From the NCBI GenBank assembly GCA_964371195.1, contig CAYJLD010000002.1:159-64158 (forward strand): 64,000 nucleotides of DNA, written 5' to 3'. The notes below the pieces were generated by a model, which ran no database searches, had not been told where the DNA came from, and worked only from the letters and a program-made list of their open reading frames with translations. Source of the stretch: an uncultured Desulfovibrionaceae bacterium (GTDB taxonomy: Bacteria > Desulfobacterota > Desulfovibrionia > Desulfovibrionales > Desulfovibrionaceae). Positions 342 through 54,871 of the stretch are shown one piece after another. How positions within the stretch are numbered: the first letter of the stretch is position 1; every line of letters starts with the position of its first letter. The translations under genes were made by a program, and so were the position numbers.

Positions 342-1115
342 ATGAAAACAATTACCGTAAATTTTATAGTTTTTTACCTACTCTTTGCGCTAAGTTCATG
401 GGCCAATGCAAAGCCAGATTTAGAGCTTTACCTTGGCAAACCATACTTTGCTAATCCACTCGGTGAAGGACCTAATAGCCCTTATGCAAAAGGGCCAATA
501 TTTAGGGATGATGGCTTTGACTGTACAACATATGTTGAAACAGTCTTGGCTAAAGTCAAAGCAAAAAATTCTAAACAAGACTTCCTAAATAACATAAAGC
601 AATTACGCTATATAGATGGCAAGGTAGACTTCTTTTCTCGAGCTCATCTTATGGAATATCACTGGATACCTAATGCCATAAAGTATGAATTTATAAGCCC
701 ATACAACATAGCTGGTACAAAAAAAACCAATTTTCAACTTGGTTTACGTCAATGGTTTTTAGAAAATAAAGAAGTAAAATTCAAAGACCAAACATATATT
801 CAATTGGCCAAGCTCCAACCTACCCACATACAAACCAGTATTCCCTACATTCAATCAAAAAAAATTGACATCAAACTCTTAAATTCATTACCAAACTTTA
901 TGGTTGTTTTTTTTATTAAATCATTACCATCCCAAACTTGGCCAGGACAAAATCAAGAACAAGAATGCATCACACACATGGGACTACTAATAGATAAAAA
1001 TCTATACCACGCAAGTCGTACTAACAAATCAGTTTCTCAAATTAATCTAATAGATTACCTAAGAAATAAACCTTCGTTTATTGGGGTTAGTTTTTATAAT
1101 GTAAACTACCCATAA
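342..1115 (+). CDS. secreted DUF1460 / N-acetylmuramoyl-L-alanine-amidase-like protein
   Basis: ORF 288..1115 begins with TTG. The first ATG at 342 gives a signal-peptide-like N-terminus, MKTITVNFIVFYLLFALSSWANA. The motif DGFDCTTYVETVLA recalls the DUF1460 amidase-like family (memory only, not searched). Confidence 0.55.
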   Translation: MKTITVNFIVFYLLFALSSWANAKPDLELYLGKPYFANPLGEGPNSPYAKGPIFRDDGFDCTTYVETVLAKVKAKNSKQDFLNNIKQLRYIDGKVDFFSRAHLMEYHWIPNAIKYEFISPYNIAGTKKTNFQLGLRQWFLENKEVKFKDQTYIQLAKLQPTHIQTSIPYIQSKKIDIKLLNSLPNFMVVFFIKSLPSQTWPGQNQEQECITHMGLLIDKNLYHASRTNKSVSQINLIDYLRNKPSFIGVSFYNVNYP

Positions 1116-1323
1116 GTGTGTTCAAGTGCAAACTCATCACAAAAAATAAACTAAACATTATACATATAATACATTGAAATAATAATATTTATTTTATAGA
1201 CTTTATCTCAAATAAGTCATAAAACCACAAAAATGTATTTTTTCATAAAAAAACTTGCTCAATTAAAACTTAAATGTTATTTGAAAACCATGGAAGTAAA
1301 CATTAATACAAAAAGGGGTTGCT

Positions 1324-2757
1324 ATGTTAAAAAAAATACGTCCAATTTTATGTTTTTTATTTGTTCTTTTTATTGCAGTGCCGTGCTTTGCAGCTGCTGA
1401 TAAATCTAAAGACAGAATGTGGGGTAATGGTAAAGCCAGTGGTGTTCCTTATGAACTTAAAGAACAAAATCCTACTGCAGGCCATGTTACTACCATGTCT
1501 GAAACTGTAAACTCTGTTATCAGGACTCATAAGTCTTTAAAGGCCATTCAAGAAAACAGAGTCACTGCCCAACAAGAACTCACTCGCTCCAAAGCAGGCT
1601 ATGGTCCACGCTTGGATTTGACAGCCAGCGGGGGCATGAGCAACTTAAGTGACTCTAGCACTCGCGCGTTAAATAAGCAAAGTAATTTCTATGGTGTAGG
1701 TCAAGTACAACTTTTACTTACCCAACCTATTTGGGATGGCTTTGCCACACGTAGCCGTGTACGTGCAAGCCAAGGCGTACTTGATTCAACCACTAGTCGT
1801 GTTATTGATAATGCAACAACACTTGCGCTTGATGGTATCATTGCACACGTTGACCTTATTTGGCGTCGCATAACTGTAGACTTATCTCAAGACAATGTAG
1901 CAACTCACGAAAGAATATTATCCCTCACACGTGACCGCGAAGCAACTGGTGCAGATACAATTGCCAACGTAACTCAAACTCAAGGTCGTTTAATTAATGC
2001 TTTGAGCACACTAGAAGACTCAAAAGCTTCACTTATTCAAGGTGAAGACTCTTATACACGCCTTACAGAGTTACCAGTTCCAACATCACTTGGTCCTATT
2101 AAACAACCTATAAAGATGTTTTCTAGCCCACAAGAAATTATTGACTATGCTAAAACTAATAATCCCAAAATTATTGCATACCTAGCAGATGTTCGTACAG
2201 CACAAGCTAACAAAGAACTCACTGAATCTGCATTTTATCCAACCATCAATATTGAAGCTGGACCAAGCTTTTCTACAACTGGTTACAGAAACACCGATAG
2301 TGAAGATTATTGGACTTCAGGCATGGACGTTTTTGGAACTATGCGTTGGAACTTATTTAACAGCGGTGCAGACTTAGCTGGAAGCAAAGCAGATGCTGCA
2401 CGTGTGCGTGAAGCTAGATATACTGCCAATAGTTTCCTTGATGATCTAACTCTACAAATTAATAATTCCTGGACTGACTACCAAACAGCTGTAACTCAGC
2501 TTTCTTATCACTTAGAAGCCATCGGTTACAACATACAAACTCGTGACTTATATATGGAGCAATTCCTCATTGGGCAACGTACACTATTAGACGTACTTGA
2601 TGCTGAAAGTGAATTATATAACTCTGAAATTCAAGCTGTTACTGCCCGTGCCAACATCATTATTAGTGCCTATACACTATATGCATTAGCTGGCATGCTT
2701 CTTCCTGAGCTGCAAATCCCAGCAGAACAAGTATTAGTGGTACCTGCTGCTCAATAA
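1324..2757 (+). CDS. TolC-family outer-membrane channel of a type I secretion system (LapE-like)
   Basis: 477 aa with a signal peptide (LFIAVPCFAAAD). Two-repeat TolC-like sequence with long helical segments (LLLTQPIWDGFATRSRVRASQ, WNLFNSGADLAGSKADAARVREA). Sits directly upstream of the ABC and HlyD genes. Confidence 0.85.
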   Translation: MLKKIRPILCFLFVLFIAVPCFAAADKSKDRMWGNGKASGVPYELKEQNPTAGHVTTMSETVNSVIRTHKSLKAIQENRVTAQQELTRSKAGYGPRLDLTASGGMSNLSDSSTRALNKQSNFYGVGQVQLLLTQPIWDGFATRSRVRASQGVLDSTTSRVIDNATTLALDGIIAHVDLIWRRITVDLSQDNVATHERILSLTRDREATGADTIANVTQTQGRLINALSTLEDSKASLIQGEDSYTRLTELPVPTSLGPIKQPIKMFSSPQEIIDYAKTNNPKIIAYLADVRTAQANKELTESAFYPTINIEAGPSFSTTGYRNTDSEDYWTSGMDVFGTMRWNLFNSGADLAGSKADAARVREARYTANSFLDDLTLQINNSWTDYQTAVTQLSYHLEAIGYNIQTRDLYMEQFLIGQRTLLDVLDAESELYNSEIQAVTARANIIISAYTLYALAGMLLPELQIPAEQVLVVPAAQ

Positions 2758-2778
2758 TTATTAATAGAAATGTACTTA

Positions 2779-2815
2779 AAAGGTCGGCTTTGCTTTGAAA
2801 AGCCGACCTTTTTTA
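2779..2815 (+). terminator. Rho-independent terminator after the TolC-family gene
   Basis: Stem AGGTCGGCT (2781..2789) pairs with AGCCGACCT (2801..2809) and is followed by TTTTT. Confidence 0.7.
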
Positions 2816-3069
2816 ATAATAATCCAGCAAATGCCAACTGCAGGCTCAAAATTACAAAATCATGATTATTTAAAAATTAAAAACCATAAAGATTTGTAAT
2901 TTTACCTGTATACAATGCACAACAAACTTTAGTGAATATATAAACAAAAAAATTGATTAGCTAAATATACAAATTAGTAAAAATTACTTTTTCAAAAAAA
3001 CATAGTAAAAAGCTAAGAAAAACTAATAAGAAAATATAGGACTTATTTGAAAGCTTGACTAACAAATAG

Positions 3070-3098
3070 TTGACAGACATAGATTTTATTCTTATCTT
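3070..3098 (+). promoter_or_regulatory. candidate sigma70-type promoter for the ABC-HlyD-receptor operon
   Basis: TTGACA (3070..3075), a 17-nt spacer, then TATCTT (3093..3098). It lies about 38 nt upstream of ATG 3136, which has a GAGG 7 nt upstream. AT-rich context, so a chance match is possible. Confidence 0.3.
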
Positions 3099-3135
3099 TG
3101 ATACACAAGACAACCTTTACGCACGAGGCAGATTT

Positions 3136-5898
3136 ATGTCTAAAGACGATGCTAACAATGCGCAAAAGGATTTGAATTCTAAAAATAGCAATAATCAAAG
3201 TCCTTCTGTATTTGATGATATTTTTAATTCACAAACCGTAACAGACAATATACCTACAAACCTAGCTAAGAATGCAACAGAAAATGTAGCAAATATTGCT
3301 AAAAGTAAAGTGGGAGTTAGATCAACTCCACTTGCACCAATTGCAAGCTCAGATCTACAAGGGGCACAAAGCATAATGTCAAATAATAAAAAAATAAATA
3401 ATACACCAGCACCAGCGTCAAACGATGCAAATGCCACAACTAGTGCTAAAAACCAAGCACAGCCTGTAGTAAATAATACTCAAGCTGAAGCTGCTTCTAG
3501 CTCGGTTGAACAAAGTAAGTCTGAGCAAAATGTGCCTACAGCAGCGCCTAAGGACACTTTGCAAACTACTTCTGCCTCTAAGGTACCGCAAGTAGACCAA
3601 GGCTCACAACCAAGTCCTACACCTAATGCGAATGAGCCAAGCCAAGATGAACAAAAAGAAGCGGCTGCTAATCCAAACCTAACACCTAAGGATAGTGAAG
3701 GGTTTGCACAATTATCTCCATCCGAAGTGGACTTTATACCACCTTTATTGCGTAGTTTAAGTACCTTAATGCGCTTACGTGGTAAAAACATTTCACCACA
3801 ATTCTTATATGCTGGCCTTGCTGGAGTAGGTGAAGTAACACCAGGTGAATGCATGCGTGCAGCAGCTCGTGTAGGTCTACAGGCGCGCATTATTCCACGT
3901 AACAGCATACAAGACATCTCTCCCATGACCCTGCCTTGTGTTTTACTTTTGCAAAATGGGCGTTCATGTGTACTGACAGCCTTTAAGCGTCAAGTGGCCA
4001 CGGTTATATTTCCAGAATCTGGTGAAGAGCCATATCAAGTTAATATTGATACATTAAACAAAGATTACACTGGATATGCAGCTTTTGGTTCCATAGAAAA
4101 AAAGGCTGACAGACGTATTGATACATTTAGACATGAAGGTGGAAAACGGTGGTTTTGGGATGCCATTAAGCACTATGGACCAATTTATCGCCATGCTGCT
4201 TTTGCTAGTGTGATAATTAACCTTATTGCGCTTGGTAGTCCATTATTCGTCATGAATGTTTATGACCGTGTTGTACCTAACCATGCTTTAGAGACCCTAT
4301 GGGTTTTAGCTTTAGGTATAACTCTTGCGTATTTATTTGACTTTTTATTAAGAACATTACGCAATTACTTTGTTGATACTGCTGGTCGTAATGCTGACGT
4401 AGTAATTTCTAGTATGCTAGTTGATAAAGTTCTAACCATGCAGCTTGATCACAAACCAGAATCCACAGGGGCACTTGTTAATAATGTGCGTGAATTTGAG
4501 GCCTTGCGTGAGTTTTTTAGCTCATCAACTCTACTTTCATGCATAGACCTACCCTTCTTGGTATTATTCTTACTCTGCCTAAGCTTTATTGGTGGACCGT
4601 TAGTTCTTTTACCTCTCATAGCCATGCCCATTATGTTTGGGGCTGGATTTATCTTACAATCTTTAGCCAAACGAGCGGCCGAAAAAAGCTATGCCCAAAG
4701 TATGCATAAAAATGCCCTACTGACTGAAATGGTAAATGGACTTGAAACCCTAAAGTGTTGTCAAGGTGAAAACCGTATGCAACGTGTGTGGGAGACAGTG
4801 GTAGAAAACTCCGCACAAGCCAATGCTGAAACCAAGAAATATGGTTCATTAGCTGTTGGATTTTCAGTATTTATTACTCAATTTGTTACTGTTGGCATGG
4901 TGGTTTGGGGTGTATATTTAATTTCTGAAGGCACTTTAACCATGGGTGGCCTTATTGGTAGTAATATTTTAGCTGGTCGTGCCATGGCTCCTTTAATGCA
5001 AATGGCAGGACTTATTACACGTTACCAAAATTCACGCATTTCGCTTGACGCTTTAAATATGCTTATGGCTCTGCCTTCAGAAGATAGACAAGCCCAAGCT
5101 ACTGTGGACTTTGGCCCCTTGCAACCATCGTTTACCTTTGAAAATGTAAGTTTTGCCTATCCTAACTCAGCGCGTACCGCCGTTGACAACCTATCCTTAC
5201 ACATAGAACCAGGTGAAAAAGTTGGTGTTATTGGGCGTATGGGCTCAGGTAAATCTACATTAATACGCTTACTTATTGGCTTATATCAACCCAAGGATGG
5301 TGCAGTAAAATTTGGTGGGGTTGATATTCGTCAGCTAGCTGGTGCAGATTTACGTGCAAGAGTTGGTTTTGCCCCGCAAGATACTGTACTTTTTTATGGT
5401 AGTATACGCGACAATATTGTACTTGGAGATCCAAGTGTAAACGATTTACGTACTATTAGAGCGGCCAATTTATCTGGGGTAATTGAATTTGTGCGCACCA
5501 ACCCTGAAGGCTTTGGGGCACAAGTTGGAGAGCAAGGTAAATCCCTTTCAGGTGGTCAACGTCAAGCAATTGGTTTAGCAAGAGCCCTTGTGCGTGACCC
5601 AGAAGTGCTTATATTAGATGAACCAACAAGTAATATGGATACATCTTCTGAACAAGCCGTGCAATCACGCCTTATGAAGATAATGAAATATAAAACTTTG
5701 ATACTTGTAACCCACCGCATGAGCATGCTTAAAATGGTGGACAGACTAATTGTTATGGATCAAGGGCGTATTGTTGCTGATGGTCCCAAGGACGAAGTTA
5801 TACAAAAATTACGCTCAGCAATTCCACAAGCTGCTAGGCAAAATGCAGAGGTTAGTGACTTAACTGCACAAGCAGCAAAGGTAGCACAAAATAGCTAA
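3136..5898 (+). CDS. type I secretion ABC permease/ATPase (LapB/LssB type) with a Cys-less C39-like domain and a long low-complexity N-terminal extension
   Basis: Walker A GRMGSGKST, signature LSGGQRQ, Walker B VLILDEPTS, H-loop LVTHR. TM region FASVIINLIALGSPLFVMNVYDRV. The C39-like segment (LPCVLLLQNGRSCVLT) shows no catalytic Cys motif. The ORF track starts at TTG 3070; ATG 3136 has the better RBS and promoter geometry. Confidence 0.9.
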   Translation: MSKDDANNAQKDLNSKNSNNQSPSVFDDIFNSQTVTDNIPTNLAKNATENVANIAKSKVGVRSTPLAPIASSDLQGAQSIMSNNKKINNTPAPASNDANATTSAKNQAQPVVNNTQAEAASSSVEQSKSEQNVPTAAPKDTLQTTSASKVPQVDQGSQPSPTPNANEPSQDEQKEAAANPNLTPKDSEGFAQLSPSEVDFIPPLLRSLSTLMRLRGKNISPQFLYAGLAGVGEVTPGECMRAAARVGLQARIIPRNSIQDISPMTLPCVLLLQNGRSCVLTAFKRQVATVIFPESGEEPYQVNIDTLNKDYTGYAAFGSIEKKADRRIDTFRHEGGKRWFWDAIKHYGPIYRHAAFASVIINLIALGSPLFVMNVYDRVVPNHALETLWVLALGITLAYLFDFLLRTLRNYFVDTAGRNADVVISSMLVDKVLTMQLDHKPESTGALVNNVREFEALREFFSSSTLLSCIDLPFLVLFLLCLSFIGGPLVLLPLIAMPIMFGAGFILQSLAKRAAEKSYAQSMHKNALLTEMVNGLETLKCCQGENRMQRVWETVVENSAQANAETKKYGSLAVGFSVFITQFVTVGMVVWGVYLISEGTLTMGGLIGSNILAGRAMAPLMQMAGLITRYQNSRISLDALNMLMALPSEDRQAQATVDFGPLQPSFTFENVSFAYPNSARTAVDNLSLHIEPGEKVGVIGRMGSGKSTLIRLLIGLYQPKDGAVKFGGVDIRQLAGADLRARVGFAPQDTVLFYGSIRDNIVLGDPSVNDLRTIRAANLSGVIEFVRTNPEGFGAQVGEQGKSLSGGQRQAIGLARALVRDPEVLILDEPTSNMDTSSEQAVQSRLMKIMKYKTLILVTHRMSMLKMVDRLIVMDQGRIVADGPKDEVIQKLRSAIPQAARQNAEVSDLTAQAAKVAQNS

Positions 5899-5914
5899 TT
5901 AATTCGAGGTTGTT

Positions 5915-7339
5915 ATGCAAAATAATCAAAATGGAGGCTTTTTTTCGGGCCTTAGAAACTTTATACAAATGCTTAAGGATGGCGCGTCATCAACAAATTT
6001 TGACCAAGATAATCAACGCCAAAAACTTGATACTTCTGAGCTAGCCTATGCCGATGTGGTGGAAGCAGCTATGCAGCGTAAACCCACTATGCAAGCGCGC
6101 TTATTATCACTTGCTACAGGACTTTTTATTGCTATATTCATTGCTTGGGCAGCTTGGGCAGAGGTAGACGAAGTAACGCGTGCTGAAGGTAAGGTTATTG
6201 CTTCACAACGCACGCAGATTATTCAAAACCTTGAGGGTGGTATCTTGCAAGATATTTTGGTGCGTGAAGGTCAAATCATCACCAAGGGCACACCATTAGC
6301 CCGTATTGATAACGAAATGGCAGCCAGTACTTATAGAGATGCACTTAGCAAATCGCTTGAACATACAGCTGCAATTATACGCCTAGAATCAGAGCTTACA
6401 GACGTTGAGCCAGTTTATCCTGAAGAAATTGTTCGTGATGCTCCGCAGGTTATTGCAGACCAAAATTCAGCCCTTGCTGCACGTAAACTACAACGTGATA
6501 GTGAAATTATTGTATTAAAATCTCAATATGAGCAACGCCTTCAAGAGGTTGAAGAACAACAAGCTCGTAAACGCTCAGTTGACCGTAATTTAGCTTTAGC
6601 CATTGAGCAACGTAATACTGTATTGCCACTACTTAAGCGTAAGAATTATTCACGCATTGAATTCTTAAATTTGGAACAAGAAGTTGCCAATCTTGAGGGT
6701 GAGCTTGAAGGGCTGACTGTATCTATACCCAAGGCTCAAGCTGCCGCTGATGAAGCTTTGCAACGTATTGCTTTTCGTGAGGCTGAACTTGACACAGCCA
6801 TTACCGAAGAGATTAATGAGCGCCGTGCTGAGCTCAATTCACTAAAAGAAACTATTTCGGCCGGTAGTGACCGTGTCACTCGTACTGTAGTGCGCTCGCC
6901 AGTCAATGGTACAATACAACAAATTCATCTTAACACTCTTGGCGGTGTTGTAAAACCTGGTGAAGCCATAATGGAAGTTGTGCCTATTGATGATACACTA
7001 TTAGTGGAAGTTAGAGTGCGCCCCTCAGATGTTGCTTTTTTACACCCAGACCAAAAAGCTATGCTCAAATTTTCCGCCTATGACTTTGGTGTTTATGGTG
7101 GGCTTGATGGTGTTCTTGAACAAATAAGTGCTGATACTATTGAAGATAAACAAGGTGAGGTTTTTTATCTTGCCAAGTTACGTACTAATAAAACCGGAAT
7201 TACACATCGGGGAGAAATCTTACCTATTATTCCAGGTATGACTGCAACAGCAGACATTCTCACCGGACGTAAGACCATTCTCGATTATATACTAAAACCC
7301 ATTCTCAAAGCACAACAAAACGCACTACGCGAAAGGTAG
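5915..7339 (+). CDS. HlyD-family type I secretion periplasmic adaptor (LapC-like)
   Basis: Single N-terminal TM (LLSLATGLFIAIFIAWAAWA), a long coiled-coil middle, and the C-terminal signature ILPIIPGMTATADILTGRKTILDYILKP. A 16-nt gap separates it from the ABC gene. Confidence 0.9.
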   Translation: MQNNQNGGFFSGLRNFIQMLKDGASSTNFDQDNQRQKLDTSELAYADVVEAAMQRKPTMQARLLSLATGLFIAIFIAWAAWAEVDEVTRAEGKVIASQRTQIIQNLEGGILQDILVREGQIITKGTPLARIDNEMAASTYRDALSKSLEHTAAIIRLESELTDVEPVYPEEIVRDAPQVIADQNSALAARKLQRDSEIIVLKSQYEQRLQEVEEQQARKRSVDRNLALAIEQRNTVLPLLKRKNYSRIEFLNLEQEVANLEGELEGLTVSIPKAQAAADEALQRIAFREAELDTAITEEINERRAELNSLKETISAGSDRVTRTVVRSPVNGTIQQIHLNTLGGVVKPGEAIMEVVPIDDTLLVEVRVRPSDVAFLHPDQKAMLKFSAYDFGVYGGLDGVLEQISADTIEDKQGEVFYLAKLRTNKTGITHRGEILPIIPGMTATADILTGRKTILDYILKPILKAQQNALRER

Positions 7340-7345
7340 AATGGT

Positions 7346-9418
7346 ATGCGCCAAAATAAGTCTGGCAAAAAAGTTCATTATCGTAGCTTTTGGCTACTTG
7401 GTTTATTAATGGTAGCTCTACTCGGTGTTACCTCCATGTTTGCAATGTACACCACAAATTATGTGGCACAAAGCATGGAGCAAAACCTTGCTATTACCCT
7501 AACATCTAATGCCAAGGGTAAGACTGAAGCTATTAACTTGTGGCTTACAACTATTGACCAAGACACAAAACGTTTTGTGGATCGTGATATGATTCGCTTG
7601 TTTTGTGCTGAGTCAGTATTAAAAGCTCAAGGTAGTGCTACATCCACTCAGCTAGGGCAAATGGAAGCATTGCAAGAAGATACTGGAAAACTTGAAAATA
7701 TTCGTGACCTTATCATTCAGCAGCTCATGACATTTATTGAAACTACAAGCTTTACTGCTGGAGGTATTTGGGATGCTAACTTAAAGAGTTTACTTTTTAC
7801 CAATGGTTTAGAGGAAACTCTTTCAGAAGAACAAAAAGTACTAGTTGAGCAAACCTTAAATACTGGTGAAGTTACATTTTCTAATGTGCATGATGGATTA
7901 GCTGGGCTTATGATTACTATGGTCTATCCCATATTCCCACCAGAATACACTGAACTTCCAAAAGAAAGAGCTGTTGCTACCTTGCTACTTGAAATACCTC
8001 TTGAAGCTCCCATATCTAAAATATTTAAAGGTGCAGAAGATAAAAATCAAGAGGCAACACCATATCGCCTATTCCAATGGACTGCACAAAGTAGTGCTTT
8101 ACAGTTCATTAATTTAGAAACAGGTCAACTGATCACTTTTGATGAGTGGAAAACCCCAAAAAACGAAGAACTGCCTATTATGAAGCGCGTACTGCCAGAC
8201 GGTAGTTTTGTTTACTCTCTTGGTATACCAATAGCCAATAAAAATCTATTGGTTAGTAGCGAAGAACCTGCTCACATTGCAGAAGACTTTTATGCTAATT
8301 TCCGTAACTTTATGATTATATTTGTGGCAGGGGCCATCATAGTTACTGGCCTTTTACTTTGGGCTTGTTGGTGGTTCTTTGTGGGAAGGTATGAGCGTAA
8401 GGTTGAAGCCAGCATGCGTAAGCTCAATGAAGACGTGAATACGCAGCAACAAATTATTGATAGTATTAATGCTACTCTGACTGACGGTGTTGTTTTAACA
8501 GATACACTGGGTAATATTATATATTCCAATGCAAGTTTTGCTAAAATGGTCTATCATGAAAATAGTGATGACATTGTTGGATTTAAGATGGGTAGCATAC
8601 TTAATCCAGATGCGGCTGAAATGCTCCAAAATCACCTCGATAGAGTGGTTAGATCTGAAAAAGATCATGATTTTGAAGAAAAACTTACCATACAAGGCAA
8701 GGATGTGTATTGGCAAGCAATATACAGTCCATACTTTGGAGATCACGAACATGTAAGTGGTGTAGTTGCTGTTTACCGCGATACAACAAAGATGGTGGAA
8801 GAACGTGAAGCCGAACAAGCCAGAATTGAGCAACTAATTCAAGTACTAACCATGTCGGTTGGCTTGGTAAACCCATATCTTAGAGGTCACTCCATGCATA
8901 TGGGAGAGTTGGCAGAAAACATTGCTAAACTCATGGAATGCACTAAGGAAGAGCAAAAAACCATTGGCATGGCTGCTGCGTTAAGCCAAATGGGTATGAT
9001 TAGTTTACCTAAAGAAATTATTAATAAAAAAGGTGCACTAACAGATGAAGAACGTGAAATCATGAAAACTCACGTTTCAAAAACATGTGATATGCTAGCT
9101 GACTTTGACTTTGGCCTCCCAGTACAAGAAACCATACTTCAAATGAATGAAAACATGGATGGTAGCGGATATCCACGTCAATTAAAAGGCGATCAAATTA
9201 GCATGAATGCGCGTATCTTACACTTAGCAAACTCATTTTGCGCCATTTTGCGCCCAAGAGTATATAGGCAAGCTAGAAGCTTAAGCGATACCATAGCAAT
9301 TCTCGACAAAGAACAAAATATTTACGATTTCGAAGTATTGAAAATGTTAAAGGTATTTGTCATAAGCCCAGAAGGAAAAGTTTTTGTAAATAAATTACAA
9401 CGTAAACACGCAAAGTAA
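7346..9418 (+). CDS. transmembrane receptor: TM - periplasmic domain - TM - PAS - degenerate HD-GYP (LapD-analogue candidate, paralog 1)
   Basis: TM1 FWLLGLLMVALLGVTSMFAMY and TM2 FMIIFVAGAIIVTGLLLWACWWFFVG. PAS-like segment IIDSINATLTDGVVLTDTLGNIIYSNASFAKMV. HD-GYP-like C-terminus with AAALSQMGMISLP (HD replaced by SQ) and QMNENMDGSGYP (HHE lost, GYP kept). Confidence 0.7.
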   Translation: MRQNKSGKKVHYRSFWLLGLLMVALLGVTSMFAMYTTNYVAQSMEQNLAITLTSNAKGKTEAINLWLTTIDQDTKRFVDRDMIRLFCAESVLKAQGSATSTQLGQMEALQEDTGKLENIRDLIIQQLMTFIETTSFTAGGIWDANLKSLLFTNGLEETLSEEQKVLVEQTLNTGEVTFSNVHDGLAGLMITMVYPIFPPEYTELPKERAVATLLLEIPLEAPISKIFKGAEDKNQEATPYRLFQWTAQSSALQFINLETGQLITFDEWKTPKNEELPIMKRVLPDGSFVYSLGIPIANKNLLVSSEEPAHIAEDFYANFRNFMIIFVAGAIIVTGLLLWACWWFFVGRYERKVEASMRKLNEDVNTQQQIIDSINATLTDGVVLTDTLGNIIYSNASFAKMVYHENSDDIVGFKMGSILNPDAAEMLQNHLDRVVRSEKDHDFEEKLTIQGKDVYWQAIYSPYFGDHEHVSGVVAVYRDTTKMVEEREAEQARIEQLIQVLTMSVGLVNPYLRGHSMHMGELAENIAKLMECTKEEQKTIGMAAALSQMGMISLPKEIINKKGALTDEEREIMKTHVSKTCDMLADFDFGLPVQETILQMNENMDGSGYPRQLKGDQISMNARILHLANSFCAILRPRVYRQARSLSDTIAILDKEQNIYDFEVLKMLKVFVISPEGKVFVNKLQRKHAK

Positions 9419-9430
9419 TAGGGGAATGAT

Positions 9431-10645
9431 ATGAAGATTATATTTTTGCCTCAGCATTTTCCAGGGCCTTTTCGCTATACAGCTGCAAGACTTGCAGCAG
9501 ATAAAAGCAATAAAGTTATTTTTATAACTGACCGTTCGCGCCGTGATGTGCGTATACCTGGAGTTAGGCGAATTCTTATATCAATTCCTCAAGGACCACA
9601 TATTGCTGATCGCGCTGAACATGAAGCTGTGCGCTCCATTAAAAGAGGAACACAAATTGCTAATGCCTTGCTACACCTAAAAAACACAGGGTTCATACCG
9701 GATATTATAATAGGTAATGCCGGATATGGTTGCAGTCTTTATGCTAAGGACATTTTTCCTGATGCTTTTTTAGCTATCTATGCCGATGGCTATCAAGGTA
9801 GCAGTAGTATGTTAACCACCTTAAAGCCACGCCATGCCTATCCAACAGTTAACTTTTCCCCTGAGCGTGTGCGTAATTTATTTCAATGGGATGCTTTTAA
9901 TGATTGCCAAATGGCTTTTACATCTACAAATTGGCAAAAATCTCTTTATCCAAAATCGCTAACCAAGCAAATTCAAGTGCTACACGAAGGCATTGATACA
10001 CAATTTTTTAGCCCAAAACCAGGACAAAAATTTTGTATAGAAGGTTGTGATTTATCTCATGTTGATGAACTTGTAACCTTTTCTGGGCGCAGTATTGATA
10101 CTAGACGTAACTTCCCACAATTTTTACATAGTATACCTCAAATACTTATAGAAAGACCAAATTGCCATGTGGTAGTTATGGCAGGTTCGCAAGAAAGAGA
10201 ATCAGCAATTGACGCATCTTGGTCAGAATTATTATTTAATAAATATGATGTAGATAAAAATCGTGTGCACTTTCTTAGCTTTAGACCATATAAAGATTAT
10301 CGAATGATGCTTCAAGCTTCTTCTGTGCACGTATTCTTATCCACACCAAACGCACTTTCCACAGGACTTTTTGAAGCCATGAGTTGCGGTTGCCTTGTAA
10401 TTGCTGGGGATACTGACCCAGTGCGTGAAGTCATAGAGCATGGGCGTAATGGATTTTTATATGATATTTGGAATGCTGAATCCTTGACCCAAACTATTAT
10501 TGGAGTGTTAAGCGCATATAAACGCATGGAAACATTGCGTGATCTTGCACGTCAAGAAATGTGCAAATCATATGATTCACATACGCAAACCGAACACAAT
10601 GTTCAAAGCATTTTACAAAACTATGCTAAATGGAAAAAAAAGTAA
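9431..10645 (+). CDS. GT4-family (GT-B) glycosyltransferase
   Basis: C-terminal GT1/GT4 signature FEAMSCGCLVIAGDTDPVREVIEHGRNGFL (E-x7-E-type motif). 404 aa. Confidence 0.8.
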   Translation: MKIIFLPQHFPGPFRYTAARLAADKSNKVIFITDRSRRDVRIPGVRRILISIPQGPHIADRAEHEAVRSIKRGTQIANALLHLKNTGFIPDIIIGNAGYGCSLYAKDIFPDAFLAIYADGYQGSSSMLTTLKPRHAYPTVNFSPERVRNLFQWDAFNDCQMAFTSTNWQKSLYPKSLTKQIQVLHEGIDTQFFSPKPGQKFCIEGCDLSHVDELVTFSGRSIDTRRNFPQFLHSIPQILIERPNCHVVVMAGSQERESAIDASWSELLFNKYDVDKNRVHFLSFRPYKDYRMMLQASSVHVFLSTPNALSTGLFEAMSCGCLVIAGDTDPVREVIEHGRNGFLYDIWNAESLTQTIIGVLSAYKRMETLRDLARQEMCKSYDSHTQTEHNVQSILQNYAKWKKK

Positions 10646-10671
10646 TAGTATCTTCAGATAAACAATAATAT

Positions 10672-11355
10672 ATGCATCATATAGCCCTAATGCAAACAAA
10701 ATTAGTGCCGAAGAGCTTGCTAATCCTTATTGCCATGAGCATGTTTTTTTTCATGTCTTCATGGCATATGGCGTATGGTGCGGAGGCAAAAAAAAGTGAT
10801 CGGGTAAAACTTTTTGGTTCCATTGAGTTTAGAGGTACATTAAAAGGCCTACCTCAATGGTTAAAGGTTCAAGATAAGCATAACAAAAATGACATACTTC
10901 AAAATGGTGTAAAACTTAATGCTGGAACAACTTGGGAAGGATTAAAAGCAAAGGTTGAAGGAAAACCATTAATAGAGCAAATAAAAATTGTAAATTCCTT
11001 TTGGAATCAATGGCCTTATAAGCAGGATTCCGCACTTTATAAAGCTCCGGACTATTGGGCTGCACCATATGAATTTAGAAAACGGTCCGGAGATTGCGAA
11101 GACTATGCTATTACTAAATATTTTACCCTGCGCGCTCTAGGAGTGCCCATGGAAAAATTACGAATAGTAGTTGTTAAAGACTCAATTTTAAATCTTGCTC
11201 ATGCCATCCTTGCTGTCTATATTGATGGAGATGCATATATATTGGATAATCTTTCAAGAAACGTACTTTCTCATACGAGAATACGCAACTATATACCTCA
11301 ATATTCTGTCAATGAAAAGAATAGATGGATGCATGTAATGCCCAAAAAAAAATAA
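10672..11355 (+). CDS. periplasmic bacterial transglutaminase-like cysteine protease (BTLCP, LapG family)
   Basis: Signal/TM LLILIAMSMFFFMSSWHMAYGA. Candidate C-H-D triad: SGDCEDYAITKY (Cys codon 11095..11097), LAHAILAVY, AYILDN. The 227-aa size is typical for LapG. Confidence 0.85.
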   Translation: MHHIALMQTKLVPKSLLILIAMSMFFFMSSWHMAYGAEAKKSDRVKLFGSIEFRGTLKGLPQWLKVQDKHNKNDILQNGVKLNAGTTWEGLKAKVEGKPLIEQIKIVNSFWNQWPYKQDSALYKAPDYWAAPYEFRKRSGDCEDYAITKYFTLRALGVPMEKLRIVVVKDSILNLAHAILAVYIDGDAYILDNLSRNVLSHTRIRNYIPQYSVNEKNRWMHVMPKKK

Positions 11356-13464
11356 ATGGAGATGGCTATGTACGAAGAACATAACGACTTACTTTCAAAT
11401 GATACCCAAAGTAGTAAGAAAAAATCACGACTGGCTCTTTTTGTGGGTGTAGTTTTAGTTTTTTGTGGTGTAACAGCCCTTATTTGTCATACTTTTTATA
11501 GCGCACAAAAAAATGATATATTAGCCACTCAAGAAGAACGCCTCATGCTCACTGCTGAAGCAGCTATGGAAAGTATACGCCTTTGGGGAGTAAGCCTTGA
11601 TAGTCAAGCACGCCGTGTTAGCGAGTCAGAATTATACCGCATGTTTGCTCAAGATATTGCGCAAGTTGATGAGCAAAAAGCTGGTATGCTAAATGACCCA
11701 AATGCTACTAATATACTTGATGAAGACATAGCTTTTTTGGCCGAACAAATACCAATGATGCGTACCATCTTATTAGATTTTATGAATTATAATGGACTTC
11801 AAGATGCAAGACTTGTAAGCCCAGATGGCAAAACATTACTTTCATCCTTAGCAAGGCCAATACCTATTCAAGAAGAGCAAGCTAATGCAGTGCGTAAAGC
11901 TGCTGAAACAAATAAAACTACTTATGCCCCTATTCGCCCATCTTCTACCGGACTAGTGCTAGACTACGCTACTCCATTATTACCAGCCATGCTAAGTGAT
12001 GAAAAAGCAAAGCCTGTGGGTGCATTTTTGCTTAGTGTTCCTGTTACAGGGCAAATTGCAAACTTTACCTCTCGCGGCTCTGGTGCATCACATCGAGAAA
12101 TACAAAGTAATATATTACAATATGATGGAAAGCAGTGGGAAGTTATACGTCCAGATAGCACCCAATCTATTCCAGCTGATTTTAAACTTAATGCGGACAC
12201 AAAGTCCATACCCTTTGCTAAACGTATTGATGTAAGTGGCAAAGAAGAAGTTTATTCTGCAGGTATCTTAGTGCCTAATATTGGTTGGTTAGTAGTAGAA
12301 GAGTTACCAGCTAGCATTGTTGATACACAATTAAATCGAGCTTTTAATCTAGTATATGGAGCTGGGGCATTTTTATGTTTAAGTGTATTGCTTATGTTAG
12401 CTTTAGTTTGGTGGATAATGATTGGGCGTGAACAGCGCAGTGTTGCACAAAAATTTAGACAACTATATCAAGTAATCAGACAACAAAAACATTTATTGGA
12501 CAGCATTAATATTTCTCTTGATGTAGGACTTATGATGGTTGATGTTAGCGGAAAATTACATCTTGTAAATCGTGCTTTTGCGCTCATTGTTGGCAAAAAA
12601 GAAGATGAGTTACAAGGTCAAAATCTGCACAGTATTATGCCTGACAATGTGGCCTTGCAAGTACAAGAAGCTGTAGCTAGTGTATCTAATAGCAATGAAT
12701 CTAAAAGCATTGAGATTAAATTAACCCTACAAGGTGAAGAAAGACTGTTTCGCGCAACTCTATTCCCCTTTGAAGATAAAGAAGATGGAAGCACCAGTGC
12801 CGCTGTTATAACCATTCAAGATATTACTGAATTCCGTAGAAGTAGTGAGAAGCGTAATAAGCAACAAATGAGTACCATTGAGGCATTGGTAAGCACCATT
12901 GAGCGTGTTGACCCATATTTAGCAGGTCACTCCACTTTGATGCGACGCCTTGCTGAGCTAGTAGCCGATAACATGAACCTTGACCCCAAGGATAAGGACA
13001 CCATCACTACGGCTGCTGTATTATCACAAATTGGTAGAATATTTGTTCCGCGTGACTTGCTTGCAAAAACCGATAAGCTAACCCCAGAAGAACAAGCTGA
13101 AATAGCTAAAATTCCTGAATATGCTTACAACATTCTTAGCACCATTGATTTTGGCAATCCAGTTCCAGCGGCTGTGGTGCAAATGAATGAAAAACTAGAC
13201 GGTTCCGGCACACCACACCATTTATCAGGCGACGCCATATCGTTGCATGGGCGCATTCTTGGTGTTATTAACACCTTCTGCGCCATGGCAAGCCCACGCG
13301 CTTTCCGAGCAGGATTGCCCATGGACGTAGCCCTTGGTATACTGCGCAAGGATAACCAAGCTTATGACCAACAAATTGTTGAAAATTTAGCAACTGTGCT
13401 TACCAGCTCCCAAGGTGCTGAAGCCATAGCCGCACGCCTTGCAGAAGTAACAGCTGAAAAATAA
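11356..13464 (+). CDS. transmembrane receptor: TM - periplasmic domain - TM - PAS - degenerate HD-GYP (LapD-analogue candidate, paralog 2)
   Basis: Same architecture as 7346..9418: TM1 LALFVGVVLVFCGVTALICHTF, TM2 GAGAFLCLSVLLMLALVWWIMIG, PAS LLDSINISLDVGLMMVDVSGKLHLVNRAFALIV. Degenerate motifs are AAVLSQIGRIFVP and QMNEKLDGSGTP. The ATG abuts the protease stop (TAAATG). Confidence 0.7.
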   Translation: MEMAMYEEHNDLLSNDTQSSKKKSRLALFVGVVLVFCGVTALICHTFYSAQKNDILATQEERLMLTAEAAMESIRLWGVSLDSQARRVSESELYRMFAQDIAQVDEQKAGMLNDPNATNILDEDIAFLAEQIPMMRTILLDFMNYNGLQDARLVSPDGKTLLSSLARPIPIQEEQANAVRKAAETNKTTYAPIRPSSTGLVLDYATPLLPAMLSDEKAKPVGAFLLSVPVTGQIANFTSRGSGASHREIQSNILQYDGKQWEVIRPDSTQSIPADFKLNADTKSIPFAKRIDVSGKEEVYSAGILVPNIGWLVVEELPASIVDTQLNRAFNLVYGAGAFLCLSVLLMLALVWWIMIGREQRSVAQKFRQLYQVIRQQKHLLDSINISLDVGLMMVDVSGKLHLVNRAFALIVGKKEDELQGQNLHSIMPDNVALQVQEAVASVSNSNESKSIEIKLTLQGEERLFRATLFPFEDKEDGSTSAAVITIQDITEFRRSSEKRNKQQMSTIEALVSTIERVDPYLAGHSTLMRRLAELVADNMNLDPKDKDTITTAAVLSQIGRIFVPRDLLAKTDKLTPEEQAEIAKIPEYAYNILSTIDFGNPVPAAVVQMNEKLDGSGTPHHLSGDAISLHGRILGVINTFCAMASPRAFRAGLPMDVALGILRKDNQAYDQQIVENLATVLTSSQGAEAIAARLAEVTAEK

Positions 13465-18134: not shown

Positions 18135-20198
18135 ATGCCAACAGATATGCGCATGCTAAACCTAGGTTGTGGAGATATTTACCATACCGACTGGGTGAAT
18201 GTAGACTTACAAGCTAAGCAAAATGCCATACTTGGCTATGATTTACGTCTGGGCATTCCTTTTGCTGACGCTAGCTTTGACGTGGTATATCATGCACATT
18301 TATTAGAATACATGCCTAAACCTTGGGCTGAATACCTTCTGCGTGAATGCTATAGGGTACTTAAGCCTGGTGGTACTTTACGAGTAGTAGTGGCAGACTT
18401 TGCCAATATGGTGCAAGCCTATATGCAAAGTCTTGTAGATATAGATGAGCATAAAGAGCATGCTCATGCTAAGCATGGATGGATGCTACAAGAAATCTTA
18501 ACTCCACTTATTAGTCCAGTAAGTAATAAACAGCTAAATGAATTTGCACAAAAACTATCCCCAAGCTTAGATAGTTTCATTCAAGATAGACTAGGTACAA
18601 AGCCGCGCAACTCATCACCACAAGACCAAGCACACTCTAAACAACAAATAAATATATTTGATGAACCCAAACACCCCATACCTCCAAGCCAAGATTTTTT
18701 AAGCTCCATGCAGCAAAAGCACTGGATGTATGATTACATATCCCTAAGCACACTTTTTACTCAGTGTAAATTTACTGAAATAACTAAACAAACTCACATC
18801 ACAAGCTTCATACCTCAGTTACAAAGATTTGAACTTGATAGCCACGCCGATGGAAGTGCGCGCCATACTAATTCCATCTACCTTGAGGCTAAAAAACAAC
18901 AACAAAATACAACAATAACCCCACGTATAGCCATGCTTTGTACAGCTGACCACGGTGGAGCTGGCAATGCTGCAGTGCGATTGCATGACGCTTTGCGATT
19001 GGAGGGTATGTCTAGTAATTTTTATGTAGCTCACCAGCGCGATTATAGTGAAAATGTTTATGTAATACCGGCTTATAGTGGACACATTGCATACATAGGC
19101 CAACACTTTGATAATGCCATACGCAGTGAGCTGCAACGCTGCTCACAAAAATTACATCATGAACTTTCACGCTATCCGAACCGCCCAGAAGGCTGCGAGC
19201 ACTTTTCCATACCAGCCCAATGCCTACCCTTAGAGCAAATAAGCATCTTAAGTGATTTTGACATATTACACTTGCACTGGATATCTGGCCTTTGTGACCC
19301 AAGCCTTGCAGTAGATTTTTTACGTAATAAAAAAATTGTTTGGACTTTACATGATATGAACGCCATGACAGGTGGCTGTCATTATAATGATGGATGCCGT
19401 AAATTTGAACAAGCTTGTGGGGCTTGCCCACAACTTGGTTCTACTCAAAACAATGATTTAGCTAATCAAACTTGGCGTTTACGTATGCAAACCTATAAAG
19501 AACTTGATTTGCACATTGTAACCCCAAGCTCTTGGCTTGCTAAAGAGGCAAAAAAAAGTGCCCTATTAAAAAATTTCCCCATACATACCATAGCATATGC
19601 CCAACCATTACATATCTTTAGGCCTATGCAACGCGAAAGTTTACGCGCATCACTAAATATTAACCAAAACAGATTAGTCCTTTTGTTTGCATCCCAAGTA
19701 CTTAACAACCGCAGAAAAGGAGCTATATATCTTTTAGAATTATTACAGGTACTTGTCAATACACCCTATAAAGATAATACCACTATCTTACTGCTTGGTA
19801 ATGCTAACAACACAGCTTTTAGCCATAGTGGCATGGATATTAAATACCTTGGACACATTAACGATAATGAGCAAATGGCCGCTATGTATAACATAGCTGA
19901 CGCCACTATTGTACCTTCGCTTGAGGACAATCAACCCAATGTAATTTGTGAATCATTAGCTTGTGGTACGGCCGTAGTAGCTTTTGCTGCTGGCGGCATC
20001 AGCGAAATGATAAAGCATAAAGAAACCGGATTTCTTGTAGAGCCCAAAAACCTTGAGCAATTAATAGCTGGCGTGCAATGGGCGCATAGTGTTTACCAAA
20101 ACCCAATAACCCGCAGACTATGCCGCGCTTATGCTATGGAACAATATAATATGTCTAAAAGTGCTAAATTATATCAAGATTTATACGCTAATCTCTAG
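18135..20198 (+). CDS. fusion protein: class I SAM-dependent methyltransferase (N) + GT4-type glycosyltransferase (C)
   Basis: The N-terminus LNLGCGDIYHTDWVNVDL ... YRVLKPGGTLRVVV is Methyltransf_11-like. The C-terminus EDNQPNVICESLACGTAVVAFAAGGISEMIKHKETGFLVEP is a GT-B signature. Confidence 0.75.
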   Translation: MPTDMRMLNLGCGDIYHTDWVNVDLQAKQNAILGYDLRLGIPFADASFDVVYHAHLLEYMPKPWAEYLLRECYRVLKPGGTLRVVVADFANMVQAYMQSLVDIDEHKEHAHAKHGWMLQEILTPLISPVSNKQLNEFAQKLSPSLDSFIQDRLGTKPRNSSPQDQAHSKQQINIFDEPKHPIPPSQDFLSSMQQKHWMYDYISLSTLFTQCKFTEITKQTHITSFIPQLQRFELDSHADGSARHTNSIYLEAKKQQQNTTITPRIAMLCTADHGGAGNAAVRLHDALRLEGMSSNFYVAHQRDYSENVYVIPAYSGHIAYIGQHFDNAIRSELQRCSQKLHHELSRYPNRPEGCEHFSIPAQCLPLEQISILSDFDILHLHWISGLCDPSLAVDFLRNKKIVWTLHDMNAMTGGCHYNDGCRKFEQACGACPQLGSTQNNDLANQTWRLRMQTYKELDLHIVTPSSWLAKEAKKSALLKNFPIHTIAYAQPLHIFRPMQRESLRASLNINQNRLVLLFASQVLNNRRKGAIYLLELLQVLVNTPYKDNTTILLLGNANNTAFSHSGMDIKYLGHINDNEQMAAMYNIADATIVPSLEDNQPNVICESLACGTAVVAFAAGGISEMIKHKETGFLVEPKNLEQLIAGVQWAHSVYQNPITRRLCRAYAMEQYNMSKSAKLYQDLYANL

Positions 20199-27391: not shown

Positions 27392-27544
27392 AATAAATAC
27401 CAATTGCACTAGCACCCAGAGTGGATGAGTTAGACTTTAACGAAACACCGTGAATTAATATACACAAATACAATACGATTGTCACTAATATTTTGAGCAA
27501 AATTATATTTTTTTATCAAAAAAAATCTGTAAAATCACCACAAA

Positions 27545-48909: not shown

Positions 48910-49005
48910 AACACCCACCACCTCTATTACAATCACTTTTAAACAAGTCAGGTGATTACACTAAATTATTTACTATATACCATTTATATTATCTTAAAAT
49001 ACAGA

Positions 49006-50046: not shown

Positions 50047-50152
50047 GCGTAAATACCCCACAAATTTATTCACAATAACAATTTACTTCTGTTATTAACC
50101 AAACTTTGAATGGTAACAAAAAGCGCTCAAAGAATCAATTACAATGAGGGTA

Positions 50153-54804: not shown

Positions 54805-54871
54805 AAACACTCCTTATCATAAAAATTCACATACTGCGTAGCAATTTTAAATGGAGTTGCTATCTATAGCT

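Follow-up and report, generated by a model that had tools for sequence, protein, structure and literature searches.

A probable Dvh-type adhesin-release operon with two divergent receptors and a linked glycosyltransferase in uncultured Desulfovibrionaceae

Introduction

What do two divergent receptors of a cyclic di-GMP (c-di-GMP)-binding family do on either side of a single LapG-type protease? The question is raised by a stretch of 64,000 nucleotides from an uncultured Desulfovibrionaceae bacterium (GenBank assembly GCA_964371195.1, contig CAYJLD010000002.1, positions 159 to 64,158 of the forward strand), hereafter the window, in which a block of seven genes (1324-13464) encodes, in order, a TolC-family channel, an ATP-binding cassette (ABC) exporter, an HlyD-family adaptor, a first receptor (R1), a GT4 glycosyltransferase, a protease and a second receptor (R2). 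A preliminary description made from the sequence alone had listed seven same-strand genes and assigned their families; all seven open reading frames (ORFs) were found where it had placed them, all on the + strand, and Pfam and NCBIfam agreed with the assignments (OEP, TIGR03375, TIGR01843, PAS with HD_5, GT4 and PF06035). It had further pointed to a LapG/LapD-like pair in Desulfovibrio vulgaris as a possible precedent, correctly, as this is DvhG/DvhD (PMC10990149, PMC13090378). Its main proposal, an HD-GYP receptor in the role of LapD, has thus been published before, which takes away most of the novelty claimed for the locus.

The DvhG/DvhD system of D. vulgaris has been described in two papers (PNAS 2024; Nat Commun 2026; PMC10990149, PMC13090378). 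In strain Hildenborough, DvhD (DVU1020) controls the LapG-like protease DvhG (DVU1019) by c-di-GMP (PMC10990149). Structures of DvhD show dCache in the periplasm joined to PAS and HD-GYP domains; the latter, with SQ in place of HD and MN in place of HH, binds c-di-GMP without hydrolysing it, and the protein acts as a dimer via its stalk helices (PMC13090378). The same study reported that a second adhesin, DVU1545, is encoded remotely, stated that the mechanism linking DvhD to DvhG is unknown, and listed 78 DvhD homologues (Supplementary Data 1), with two each in D. legallii, D. fairfieldensis, D. intestinalis, D. desulfuricans, Pelagibius marinus and Maridesulfovibrio ferrireducens; glycosyltransferases are among the DvhD neighbours in its table, and neither these nor the species with two homologues are discussed (PMC13090378).

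We consider, with a probability of about 0.6, that the block represents the Desulfovibrionaceae counterpart of Lap, a Dvh-type operon in which R2 is the cognate gate of the protease, R1 a second transducer and the GT4 enzyme an accessory. Three features are new: a conserved operon whose two receptors come from separate deep branches of DvhD, a periplasmic triad, otherwise almost invariant, that has been lost only in the branch no longer found beside DvhG, and a PF12000 glycosyltransferase linked to type I secretion systems (T1SS).

Both receptors belong to the DvhD family

Each receptor has the architecture given in the preliminary description, with two hydrophobic segments on either side of a periplasmic domain, then PAS and a degenerate HD-GYP domain that Pfam detects as HD_5. 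In R1 (7346-9418, + strand), transmembrane segment 1 (TM1, residues 13-37) is followed by a dCache-like periplasmic domain, TM2 (about 315-348), the PAS domain, a stalk and the degenerate HD-GYP domain, and R2 (11356-13464, + strand) is laid out as TM1 (23-50), dCache, TM2 (329-359), PAS and degenerate HD-GYP. The best matches of both in the Protein Data Bank (PDB) were the DvhD crystal structures 9RC0, 9RBZ and 9RC2, well ahead of every other solved protein. 9RC0 was matched at 9e-59 by R1 and at 1.5e-63 by R2, and 9RC2 at 2.5e-15 over the first 165 residues of R1 and at 4.9e-27 over the entire periplasmic domain of R2. An AlphaFold2 model of R1 (pLDDT 82.6) had 9RC0, 9RBZ and 9RC2 as its top Foldseek matches (target TM-scores 0.78-0.89), with the whole dCache domain included.

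Both receptors also share the HD-GYP fold with PmGH (4MCW), PA4781 (4R8Z) and V-cGAP3 (5Z7C), which are active phosphodiesterases. In both, SQ stands for HD and MN for HH, while GYP is kept in R1 and replaced by GTP in R2. Across 99 aligned receptors the HD motif was SQ and the first His of HH was Met in every case (99/99), as in DvhD, with N, Y or G at the second His; the HD and HH metal motifs that mark an active HD-GYP phosphodiesterase were thus absent from R1, R2 and the 99 aligned relatives. Because the metal ligands are replaced, hydrolysis is not expected in R1 or R2, as in DvhD (PMC13090378). The structural matches together with the SQ and MN motifs therefore identify the locus as a Dvh system.

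Neither LapD_MoxY_N, HAMP, GGDEF nor EAL domains were found by Pfam among 37 window proteins scanned (all ORFs of at least 450 aa except an FtsK-like one of 738 aa; five ORFs of 250-450 aa lay outside the scan), and RTX repeats were likewise absent from these 37. No GG[DE]EF or RTX nonapeptide motif occurred in any open frame of the window. The description of a Lap-like locus with HD-GYP proteins in LapD's place was therefore upheld by the DvhD matches and the lack of LapD-type domains in the scanned proteins, as was its statement that no GGDEF or EAL motif and no RTX cargo lie in the 64 kb, for the scanned proteins and for the motif search of all open frames. To our knowledge, Dvh is the only characterised solution to c-di-GMP-controlled adhesin release that does not use LapD. 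The locus shares its logic with the Lap system of Pseudomonas fluorescens (LapA, LapEBC, LapG, LapD), namely a T1SS-anchored adhesin, release by a BTLCP protease and a c-di-GMP receptor as check, and its protease is homologous to LapG (4FGO) and its ABC exporter of the LapB/LssB type; unlike in P. fluorescens, no LapD was found among the proteins scanned in the 64 kb, and the receptor fold is unrelated to that of LapD.

The protease is of the DvhG/LapG type and abuts R2

The protease (10672-11355, + strand) matched PF06035 at 2.1e-19 and aligned to Legionella LapG (4FGO, E = 1.4e-25) and to 4U65 (2.2e-22) with the motifs in register. Its catalytic triad is C142, H177 and D192, in GDCEDYA, LAHAIL and ILDN, and the D-C-E calcium site is present, with D141 and E143 flanking C142. 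Against the NCBIfam LapG equivalog it scored 111 bits (cut-off 320). The N-terminus is hydrophobic and ends in AYG/AE, which by eye fits a signal peptide. The call of an exported BTLCP/LapG-type protease is thus borne out by the triad and calcium site in the alignment to 4FGO and, as read by eye, by the N-terminus. Its stop codon and the R2 start codon abut in TAAATG (11353-11358, a gap of 0 nt), confirming the junction described earlier. The R2 gene therefore lies directly downstream of the protease gene; R1 is upstream, with the GT4 gene between R1 and the protease.

We compared this arrangement with the D. vulgaris Dvh system (DvhE/B/C, DvhG and DvhD; adhesins DvhA and DVU1545). Common to both are a T1SS of TolC, an LssB-type ABC exporter and HlyD, a BTLCP protease with a C-H-D triad and a D-C-E calcium site whose gene is immediately followed by a receptor gene, and a dCache-TM-PAS-HD-GYP receptor with SQ and MN motifs and a conserved c-di-GMP pocket. 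Unlike in D. vulgaris, a second receptor from another deep branch and a GT4 gene are inserted between HlyD and the protease, the adhesin gene is not adjacent, R2 has GTP for GYP, and the ABC exporter has a low-complexity extension of about 200 aa. The N-terminus of the protease is short and signal-peptide-like here, whereas a transmembrane anchor is reported for DvhG of D. vulgaris Hildenborough.

R1 and R2 come from two deep branches of the family

To place the two receptors among their relatives, a DvhD profile was run against one genome per species of the Genome Taxonomy Database (GTDB), which gave 145 matches, of which the best 80 loci were fetched. The order TolC, ABC, HlyD, R1, GT4, DvhG, R2 was identical in about 30 species-level metagenome-assembled genomes (MAGs), all from study ERP123703 and all but one labelled 'uncultured Desulfovibrionaceae', with 38-45% GC in the two-receptor loci sampled. 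Gaps within the block were 0-30 nt, with 6 nt between HlyD and R1 in most loci and at most 20 nt between DvhG and R2 in all but one. All other fetched loci (from Mailhella, D. desulfuricans, D. falkowii, a Thermoguttaceae MAG and more) had one receptor, after DvhG. R1-type proteins were rare: a full HMMER pass with the R1 periplasmic domain over 1.84 billion representative sequences returned 61 proteins, mostly of DvhD length and four or five of them R1-type, and 241 million metagenome records held no R1-type receptor and three distant DvhDs at 29-30% identity.

The receptor tree, built by neighbour joining and rooted with a distant HD-GYP protein, split the family into two branches (50/50 bootstraps). 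Branch A held R2 and every single-copy DvhD of the fetched loci, and branch B (50/50 bootstraps) held the R1 clade, its sister in locus L090 and the receptors of the Bilophila-like loci L089 and L091. R1 and R2 were 31% identical in their cytoplasmic and 18.5% in their periplasmic parts, and R1 was no nearer to the R2 of its own genome than to other DvhDs. A recent tandem duplication of the receptor is ruled out, as R1 is no closer to its own R2 and falls in a different deep branch. The preliminary description had emphasised a duplicated receptor whose paralogs bracket the protease; the bracketing is real and conserved, but the two proteins are not a simple paralog pair and represent two deep DvhD branches. 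Our own reading of the sequences is that the operon probably arose by joining a T1SS-R1-GT4 block to a branch-A DvhG-R2 pair. The DvhG of the window was 59-61% identical to Mailhella-type DvhG vs 47-48% to DvhG of L089 and L091, paralleling R2.

The order in L089 and L091 is TolC, ABC, HlyD, DvhG, receptor, GT4; their receptors follow DvhG as lone receptors and so appear to be its ordinary partners. Together with L039, L040 and L043 they form a set of single-receptor loci that end in a glycosyltransferase and share with the window the same T1SS, DvhG, a DvhD-family receptor and a PF12000 enzyme. The receptor-then-glycosyltransferase order of these five loci mirrors that of R1 and GT4, with the difference that they have one receptor only, after DvhG, in which the periplasmic residues R/R/D (see below) are kept.

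The sister locus L090 (ENA ERZ1700604; 1-1555 on the - strand and 2267-11221) has 59% GC and consists of a divergently oriented giant adhesin gene followed by TolC, ABC, HlyD, an R1-type receptor and GT4; neither DvhG nor another receptor was encoded in the 10 kb downstream. Its T1SS proteins are 60-74% identical to those of the window, and many members of the two-receptor clade are no closer. The L090 adhesin, longer than 2631 aa, contains LQPAAGG at about residue 92 ahead of its VCBS repeats.

Pairwise dN/dS was 0.01-0.14 across the seven genes, so none is decaying in general and the block is under purifying selection. The R1 frame ends near residue 517-535 in L012 (6082-7674) and L035 (5985-7520), which lack the SQ...GYP core, and R2 is split in two in L035 (10001-12083) and intact in L012; these truncations could be gene decay or assembly error. 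A functionless R1, decaying as the relic of a former Dvh locus, would fit with its being the fastest-evolving of the seven proteins and with the missing HD-GYP core in L012 and L035. We regard this as very improbable, given intact full-length ORFs in about 26 species, a dN/dS of 0.01-0.11 for R1, 41 periplasmic positions conserved to at least 90% within its clade, and invariant pocket residues.

The two receptors differ in the periplasm and in the nucleotide pocket

We assessed whether the conserved periplasmic face of the family was retained in both receptors. Of 29 periplasmic positions that were at least 85% conserved in 71 branch-A receptors, the R1 clade keeps 13. Three charged positions, R152, R194 and D203 (R2 numbering), reach 94-99% conservation within branch A. 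The receptors of L089 and L091, which sit next to DvhG, still have them, but in L090 and the whole R1 clade C or G stands for R152, H or Y for R194 and N for D203. In the R1 model the three positions lie on strands of the membrane-distal lobe, the usual site of Cache pockets. R2 belongs to the canonical branch, abuts DvhG and keeps the near-invariant periplasmic residues, and is therefore the likely cognate gate of the protease.

A covariation (mirror-tree) test, in which distance matrices were compared after removing T1SS divergence, showed that DvhG co-varies with the periplasmic domain of R2 (partial r = 0.47, p = 0.001), which is weak evidence, and not with that of R1 (r = -0.09, p = 0.72), for which distances were near saturation. 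The cytoplasmic parts of R1 and R2 also co-varied (partial r = 0.50, p = 0.005). The periplasmic comparisons suggest that R1 and R2 are not equivalent on that side of the membrane.

Within the cytoplasm, the positions at which DvhD contacts c-di-GMP were compared between the R1 clade (n = 28) and R2 of the same clade (n = 26). L577 and R650 are invariant in both sets (28/28 and 26/26), and Y523 is Y in 28/28 R1 and 25/26 R2 (F in 1/26). At K582 the R1 clade has R (28/28) and R2 has Q (26/26), at Y621 the R1 clade keeps Y (28/28) and R2 has S, T or G (26/26), at M646 the R1 clade has I (27/28; M in 1/28) and R2 has M (25/26; I in 1/26), and at Y652 the R1 clade has Y or W (28/28) and R2 has F (26/26). 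In the window, every c-di-GMP contact is retained in R1, R standing in for K and I for M, and R2 keeps the Y523, L577, M646 and R650 contacts and differs in Q580, T619 and F650. Substitutions like those of R2 at K582 and Y621 are common in single-copy DvhDs, so the R2 losses do not show a failure to bind. The contrast may reflect a division of labour in nucleotide binding. In 26/26 R2 of the clade (the window and orthologues in L002-L032) GYP reads G[S/T/G]P, with Q at K582 and F at Y652, against Y, R and Y or W in 28/28 R1.

It is possible, though we hold it only tentatively, that both receptors sequester or inhibit DvhG equally and so impose two-input (OR/AND) or antagonistic control on adhesin release. 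The complete DvhD architecture and a conserved nucleotide pocket are found in each, purifying selection acts on the two genes, which lie on either side of the protease gene within a single operon in about 30 species, and the R1 sisters in L089 and L091 are the sole DvhG partners of their loci. Equal control is harder to reconcile with the loss of R152, R194, D203 and 16/29 canonical periplasmic positions in R1, with the lack of DvhG covariation in its periplasmic domain, and with L090, where an R1-type receptor accompanies a T1SS and GT4 with no DvhG nearby.

An R1/R2 heterodimer, to which R1 would contribute the better c-di-GMP site and R2 the periplasmic face that docks DvhG, seems improbable to us. 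DvhD is dimeric via its stalk helices (PMC13090378), the losses are complementary, in that Y621 and a basic side chain at 582 persist in R1, which lacks the triad, and the triad persists in R2, which lacks Y621 and K582, and the cytoplasmic covariation reported above goes with strict co-inheritance of the two genes. The cytoplasmic parts are, however, only 31% identical, and the covariation is nonspecific, as GT4 co-varies too. Moreover, in L012 and L035 R1 is cut before the HD-GYP core and the GT4, DvhG and R2 genes remain (R2 intact in L012, split in L035).

The glycosyltransferase is associated with type I secretion

The enzyme encoded between R1 and the protease (9431-10645, + strand) is a predicted cytoplasmic GT-B protein that matched PF12000 (Glyco_trans_4_3) at 6.9e-34 and PF00534 (Glycos_transf_1) at 2.8e-18 and has no hydrophobic segments. 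The nearest PDB folds to its AlphaFold2 model (pLDDT 90.3) were MshA, PglA and BshA at 14-17% identity. As the fold search returned generic retaining GT4 enzymes only, the acceptor is not readable from the fold.

PF12000-type glycosyltransferases, with the same pairing of PF12000 and PF00534 apart from the exceptions below, occurred in eight other Dvh loci, 3' of the receptor in L036, L039, L040 and L043, ahead of the ABC gene in L049 and L053, and just upstream of TolC in L076 and L078, where the L078 gene also lies 3' of HlyD. Those of L049 and L076 matched PF12000 only, L076 just under the Pfam threshold, and those of L040, L043, L053 and L078 were recognised by tblastn, not by Pfam. Bilophila-like loci also carry a PF12000 glycosyltransferase, and one lies directly 3' of every branch-B receptor, with gaps of -4 to 44 nt except in one locus with a truncated R1. 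In Maridesulfovibrio zosterae (L085) the glycosyltransferase gene is directly 3' of HlyD, and neither DvhG nor DvhD is present. This locus (400-11227) comprises a 573-aa HemolysinCabind (RTX) protein, two unknown proteins, a C39-ABC exporter, HlyD and the PF12000 glycosyltransferase. No T1SS lay near the more remote homologues of a cyanobacterium and a groundwater organism.

The glycosyltransferase is found with T1SS genes that lack DvhDG, and is therefore linked to Desulfovibrionaceae type I secretion and not to R1. The embedded glycosyltransferase had been put forward as a new point, and the linkage is indeed undescribed; the gene is nonetheless a recurrent accessory of Dvh and T1SS loci that already stands, without comment, in the published neighbourhood table. 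Our best guess is that, before export, the enzyme acts on the cargo itself or on a surface glycan on which cargo display depends. No earlier case of T1SS-linked adhesin glycosylation turned up in a literature search.

The same neighbourhoods bear on the idea that R1 does not act on DvhG and instead couples c-di-GMP or a periplasmic signal to the T1SS or GT4, for example by gating secretion or cargo glycosylation, which we judge rather unlikely. It draws on the position of a glycosyltransferase directly behind every branch-B receptor and on L090, where a T1SS and GT4 accompany an R1-type receptor that lost the triad and the 10 kb downstream hold no DvhG gene. On the other side, the glycosyltransferase also lies 3' of HlyD without a receptor and 3' of canonical-branch DvhDs, and since it occurs without R1 it does not need R1. 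No function of the DvhD family beyond DvhG control is known (PMC13090378). The PAAG site of the L090 adhesin, moreover, makes it probable that the L090 genome encodes a DvhG-type protease at another locus.

A broader form of this idea, which we find similarly doubtful, is that R1-type receptors are a separate DvhD-like subfamily uncoupled from the protease, in which the dead HD-GYP switch and an altered dCache domain would govern a different process at the T1SS; candidate outputs are cargo secretion, glycosylation by the linked GT4, and a checkpoint that depends on a periplasmic ligand. If this were true, the operon would integrate two mechanistically different c-di-GMP outputs on one adhesin, with the corollary that Desulfovibrionaceae T1SS adhesins would be glycosylated in the cytoplasm by a dedicated PF12000 glycosyltransferase.

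Proposed mechanism of the two-receptor operon

In the Dvh-type operon that we favour, by homology with the characterised systems, TolC, the LssB-type ABC exporter and HlyD would export a large adhesin of the LapA/DvhA kind, the product of a gene at another site in the genome. Its N-terminal retention module would plug the TolC channel and hold the adhesin on the cell. The exported, calcium-dependent DvhG would release it by cleavage at a [T/A/P]AAG di-alanine site, and a DvhD-type receptor with a catalytically dead HD-GYP domain would bind cytoplasmic c-di-GMP and restrain DvhG from the inside out at high c-di-GMP. R2 would be the canonical, cognate partner of DvhG. R1 is most likely a further inside-out transducer, also gated by c-di-GMP, that acts at this adhesin-retention step; it would work through a different periplasmic surface or input and would not be a redundant copy of R2. 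The glycosyltransferase would be a T1SS-linked accessory, most likely modifying the cargo, or a surface glycan required for its display, before export.

Several points weigh against this mechanism. Binding and cleavage are argued from homology, and c-di-GMP binding by R1 and R2 from residue conservation; in all 26 R2 of the clade two DvhD phosphate contacts are missing (K582 to Q, Y621 to S/T/G). No cargo adhesin lies in the 64-kb window, such that the substrate is assumed, and the GT4 fold says nothing about the acceptor. The covariation test is weak, since R1 periplasmic distances approach saturation and GT4 co-varies with DvhG too. The closest relatives of R1 with a known neighbour (L089 and L091) are ordinary DvhG partners, and R1 may bind DvhG too. 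The trees are by neighbour joining only, and the survey covered the best 80 of 145 matches, so that the remainder may include more loci with two receptors.

The known logic of the Dvh system is unchanged by this locus, and the gain is incremental. Two diverged receptors beside one protease, one with the triad kept and one with it lost, offer a natural comparison for the residues that dock or regulate DvhG. The link between PF12000 and the T1SS raises the question of whether the large adhesins of gut and environmental Desulfovibrionaceae, including Bilophila-like organisms, are glycosylated.

Type I secretion genes, cargo and neighbouring genes

The block opens with the TolC-family outer-membrane channel (1324-2757, + strand; DvhE/LapE counterpart), as it does in related loci. 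The protein has two Pfam OEP domains (E = 1.8e-45) and scored 212 bits against TIGR01844 (type_I_sec_TolC), slightly below the cut-off of 225. By sequence reading and folding, an intrinsic-terminator-like hairpin (2778-2818, + strand) follows the gene and is itself followed by an AT-rich spacer. The hairpin has a 14-bp stem, a 7-nt loop and a U6 tract, with a folding energy of -21.2 kcal/mol (z = -7.08; 0/200 shuffles folded equally well). The spacer before the ABC gene is 312 nt to a TTG at 3070 or 378 nt to the ATG at 3136, in line with the hairpin and spacer of about 320 nt described after the first gene; the ATG, with GAGG upstream, is more likely to be the start. Riboswitches, for c-di-GMP or other ligands, were sought in the 378-nt spacer with Rfam, which gave sub-threshold matches only, on the terminator hairpin.

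The ABC permease/ATPase (3136-5898, + strand, with the alternative TTG start at 3070) is the DvhB counterpart, of the LssB/LapB type (TIGR03375, 898 bits, cut-off 693, residues 225-916 of a 942-aa frame). A low-complexity N-terminal extension precedes a C39-like domain, a transmembrane domain and a nucleotide-binding domain. The N-terminal domain matched the C39-like domain of PDB 3B79 (E = 6e-12), and the Pfam Peptidase_C39 match was sub-threshold, with an alignment that begins at profile position 17. The exporter had been called Cys-less and C39-like. The stretch aligned to 3B79 (PLLRSLSTLMRLRG) contains no Cys, which is consistent with that description as far as the alignment to 3B79 goes. 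The extension ahead of the C39-like domain (3136-3740) is cytoplasmic, about 200 aa long and without a family match, and its first 200 aa are rich in S (27), A (26), N (26), Q (17), P (17) and T (15). ABC open frames were 800-1265 aa across the two-receptor clade vs 737-764 aa for the exporters of L089-L091. The HlyD-family periplasmic adaptor (5915-7339, + strand; DvhC counterpart) scored 371 bits against TIGR01843 (cut-off 209) and has a single N-terminal hydrophobic segment.

The missing cargo had been offered as a further new point. It is absent from the window, but non-adjacent cargo is the norm: an open frame of more than about 1300 aa lay within 10 kb in almost none of the 80 loci, and the related two-receptor loci had no such adhesin gene over that distance. 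As almost no related locus has an adjacent giant gene, the absence is normal and neither supports nor refutes the model. Window ORFs of 1114 and 1259 aa were rejected as cargo, being YhdP-like (a weak, sub-threshold match) and a hybrid kinase, respectively, as were two paralogs of 765 and 768 aa, which have a PP-loop-like SGGFD motif and no repeats. Directly upstream of the TolC gene lies an AmiA-like amidase-family gene (288-1115), where D. vulgaris has an adhesin gene, and the flanks of the seven-gene block vary among related genomes (e.g. L001 and L093).

The tandem paralogs of 768 and 765 aa (50153-52459 and 52513-54810, - strand) share the motif SGGFD[ST]R and have no Pfam match; with two further proteins without a family match (47833-48936 and 49006-50073) they form an uncharacterised four-gene cluster. 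Within 15 kb downstream of the block, a methyltransferase-glycosyltransferase fusion and two PAS-containing hybrid histidine kinases are encoded (18135-20198, 20305-22725 and 23636-27415, - strand), which are possible regulators or envelope-modification genes.

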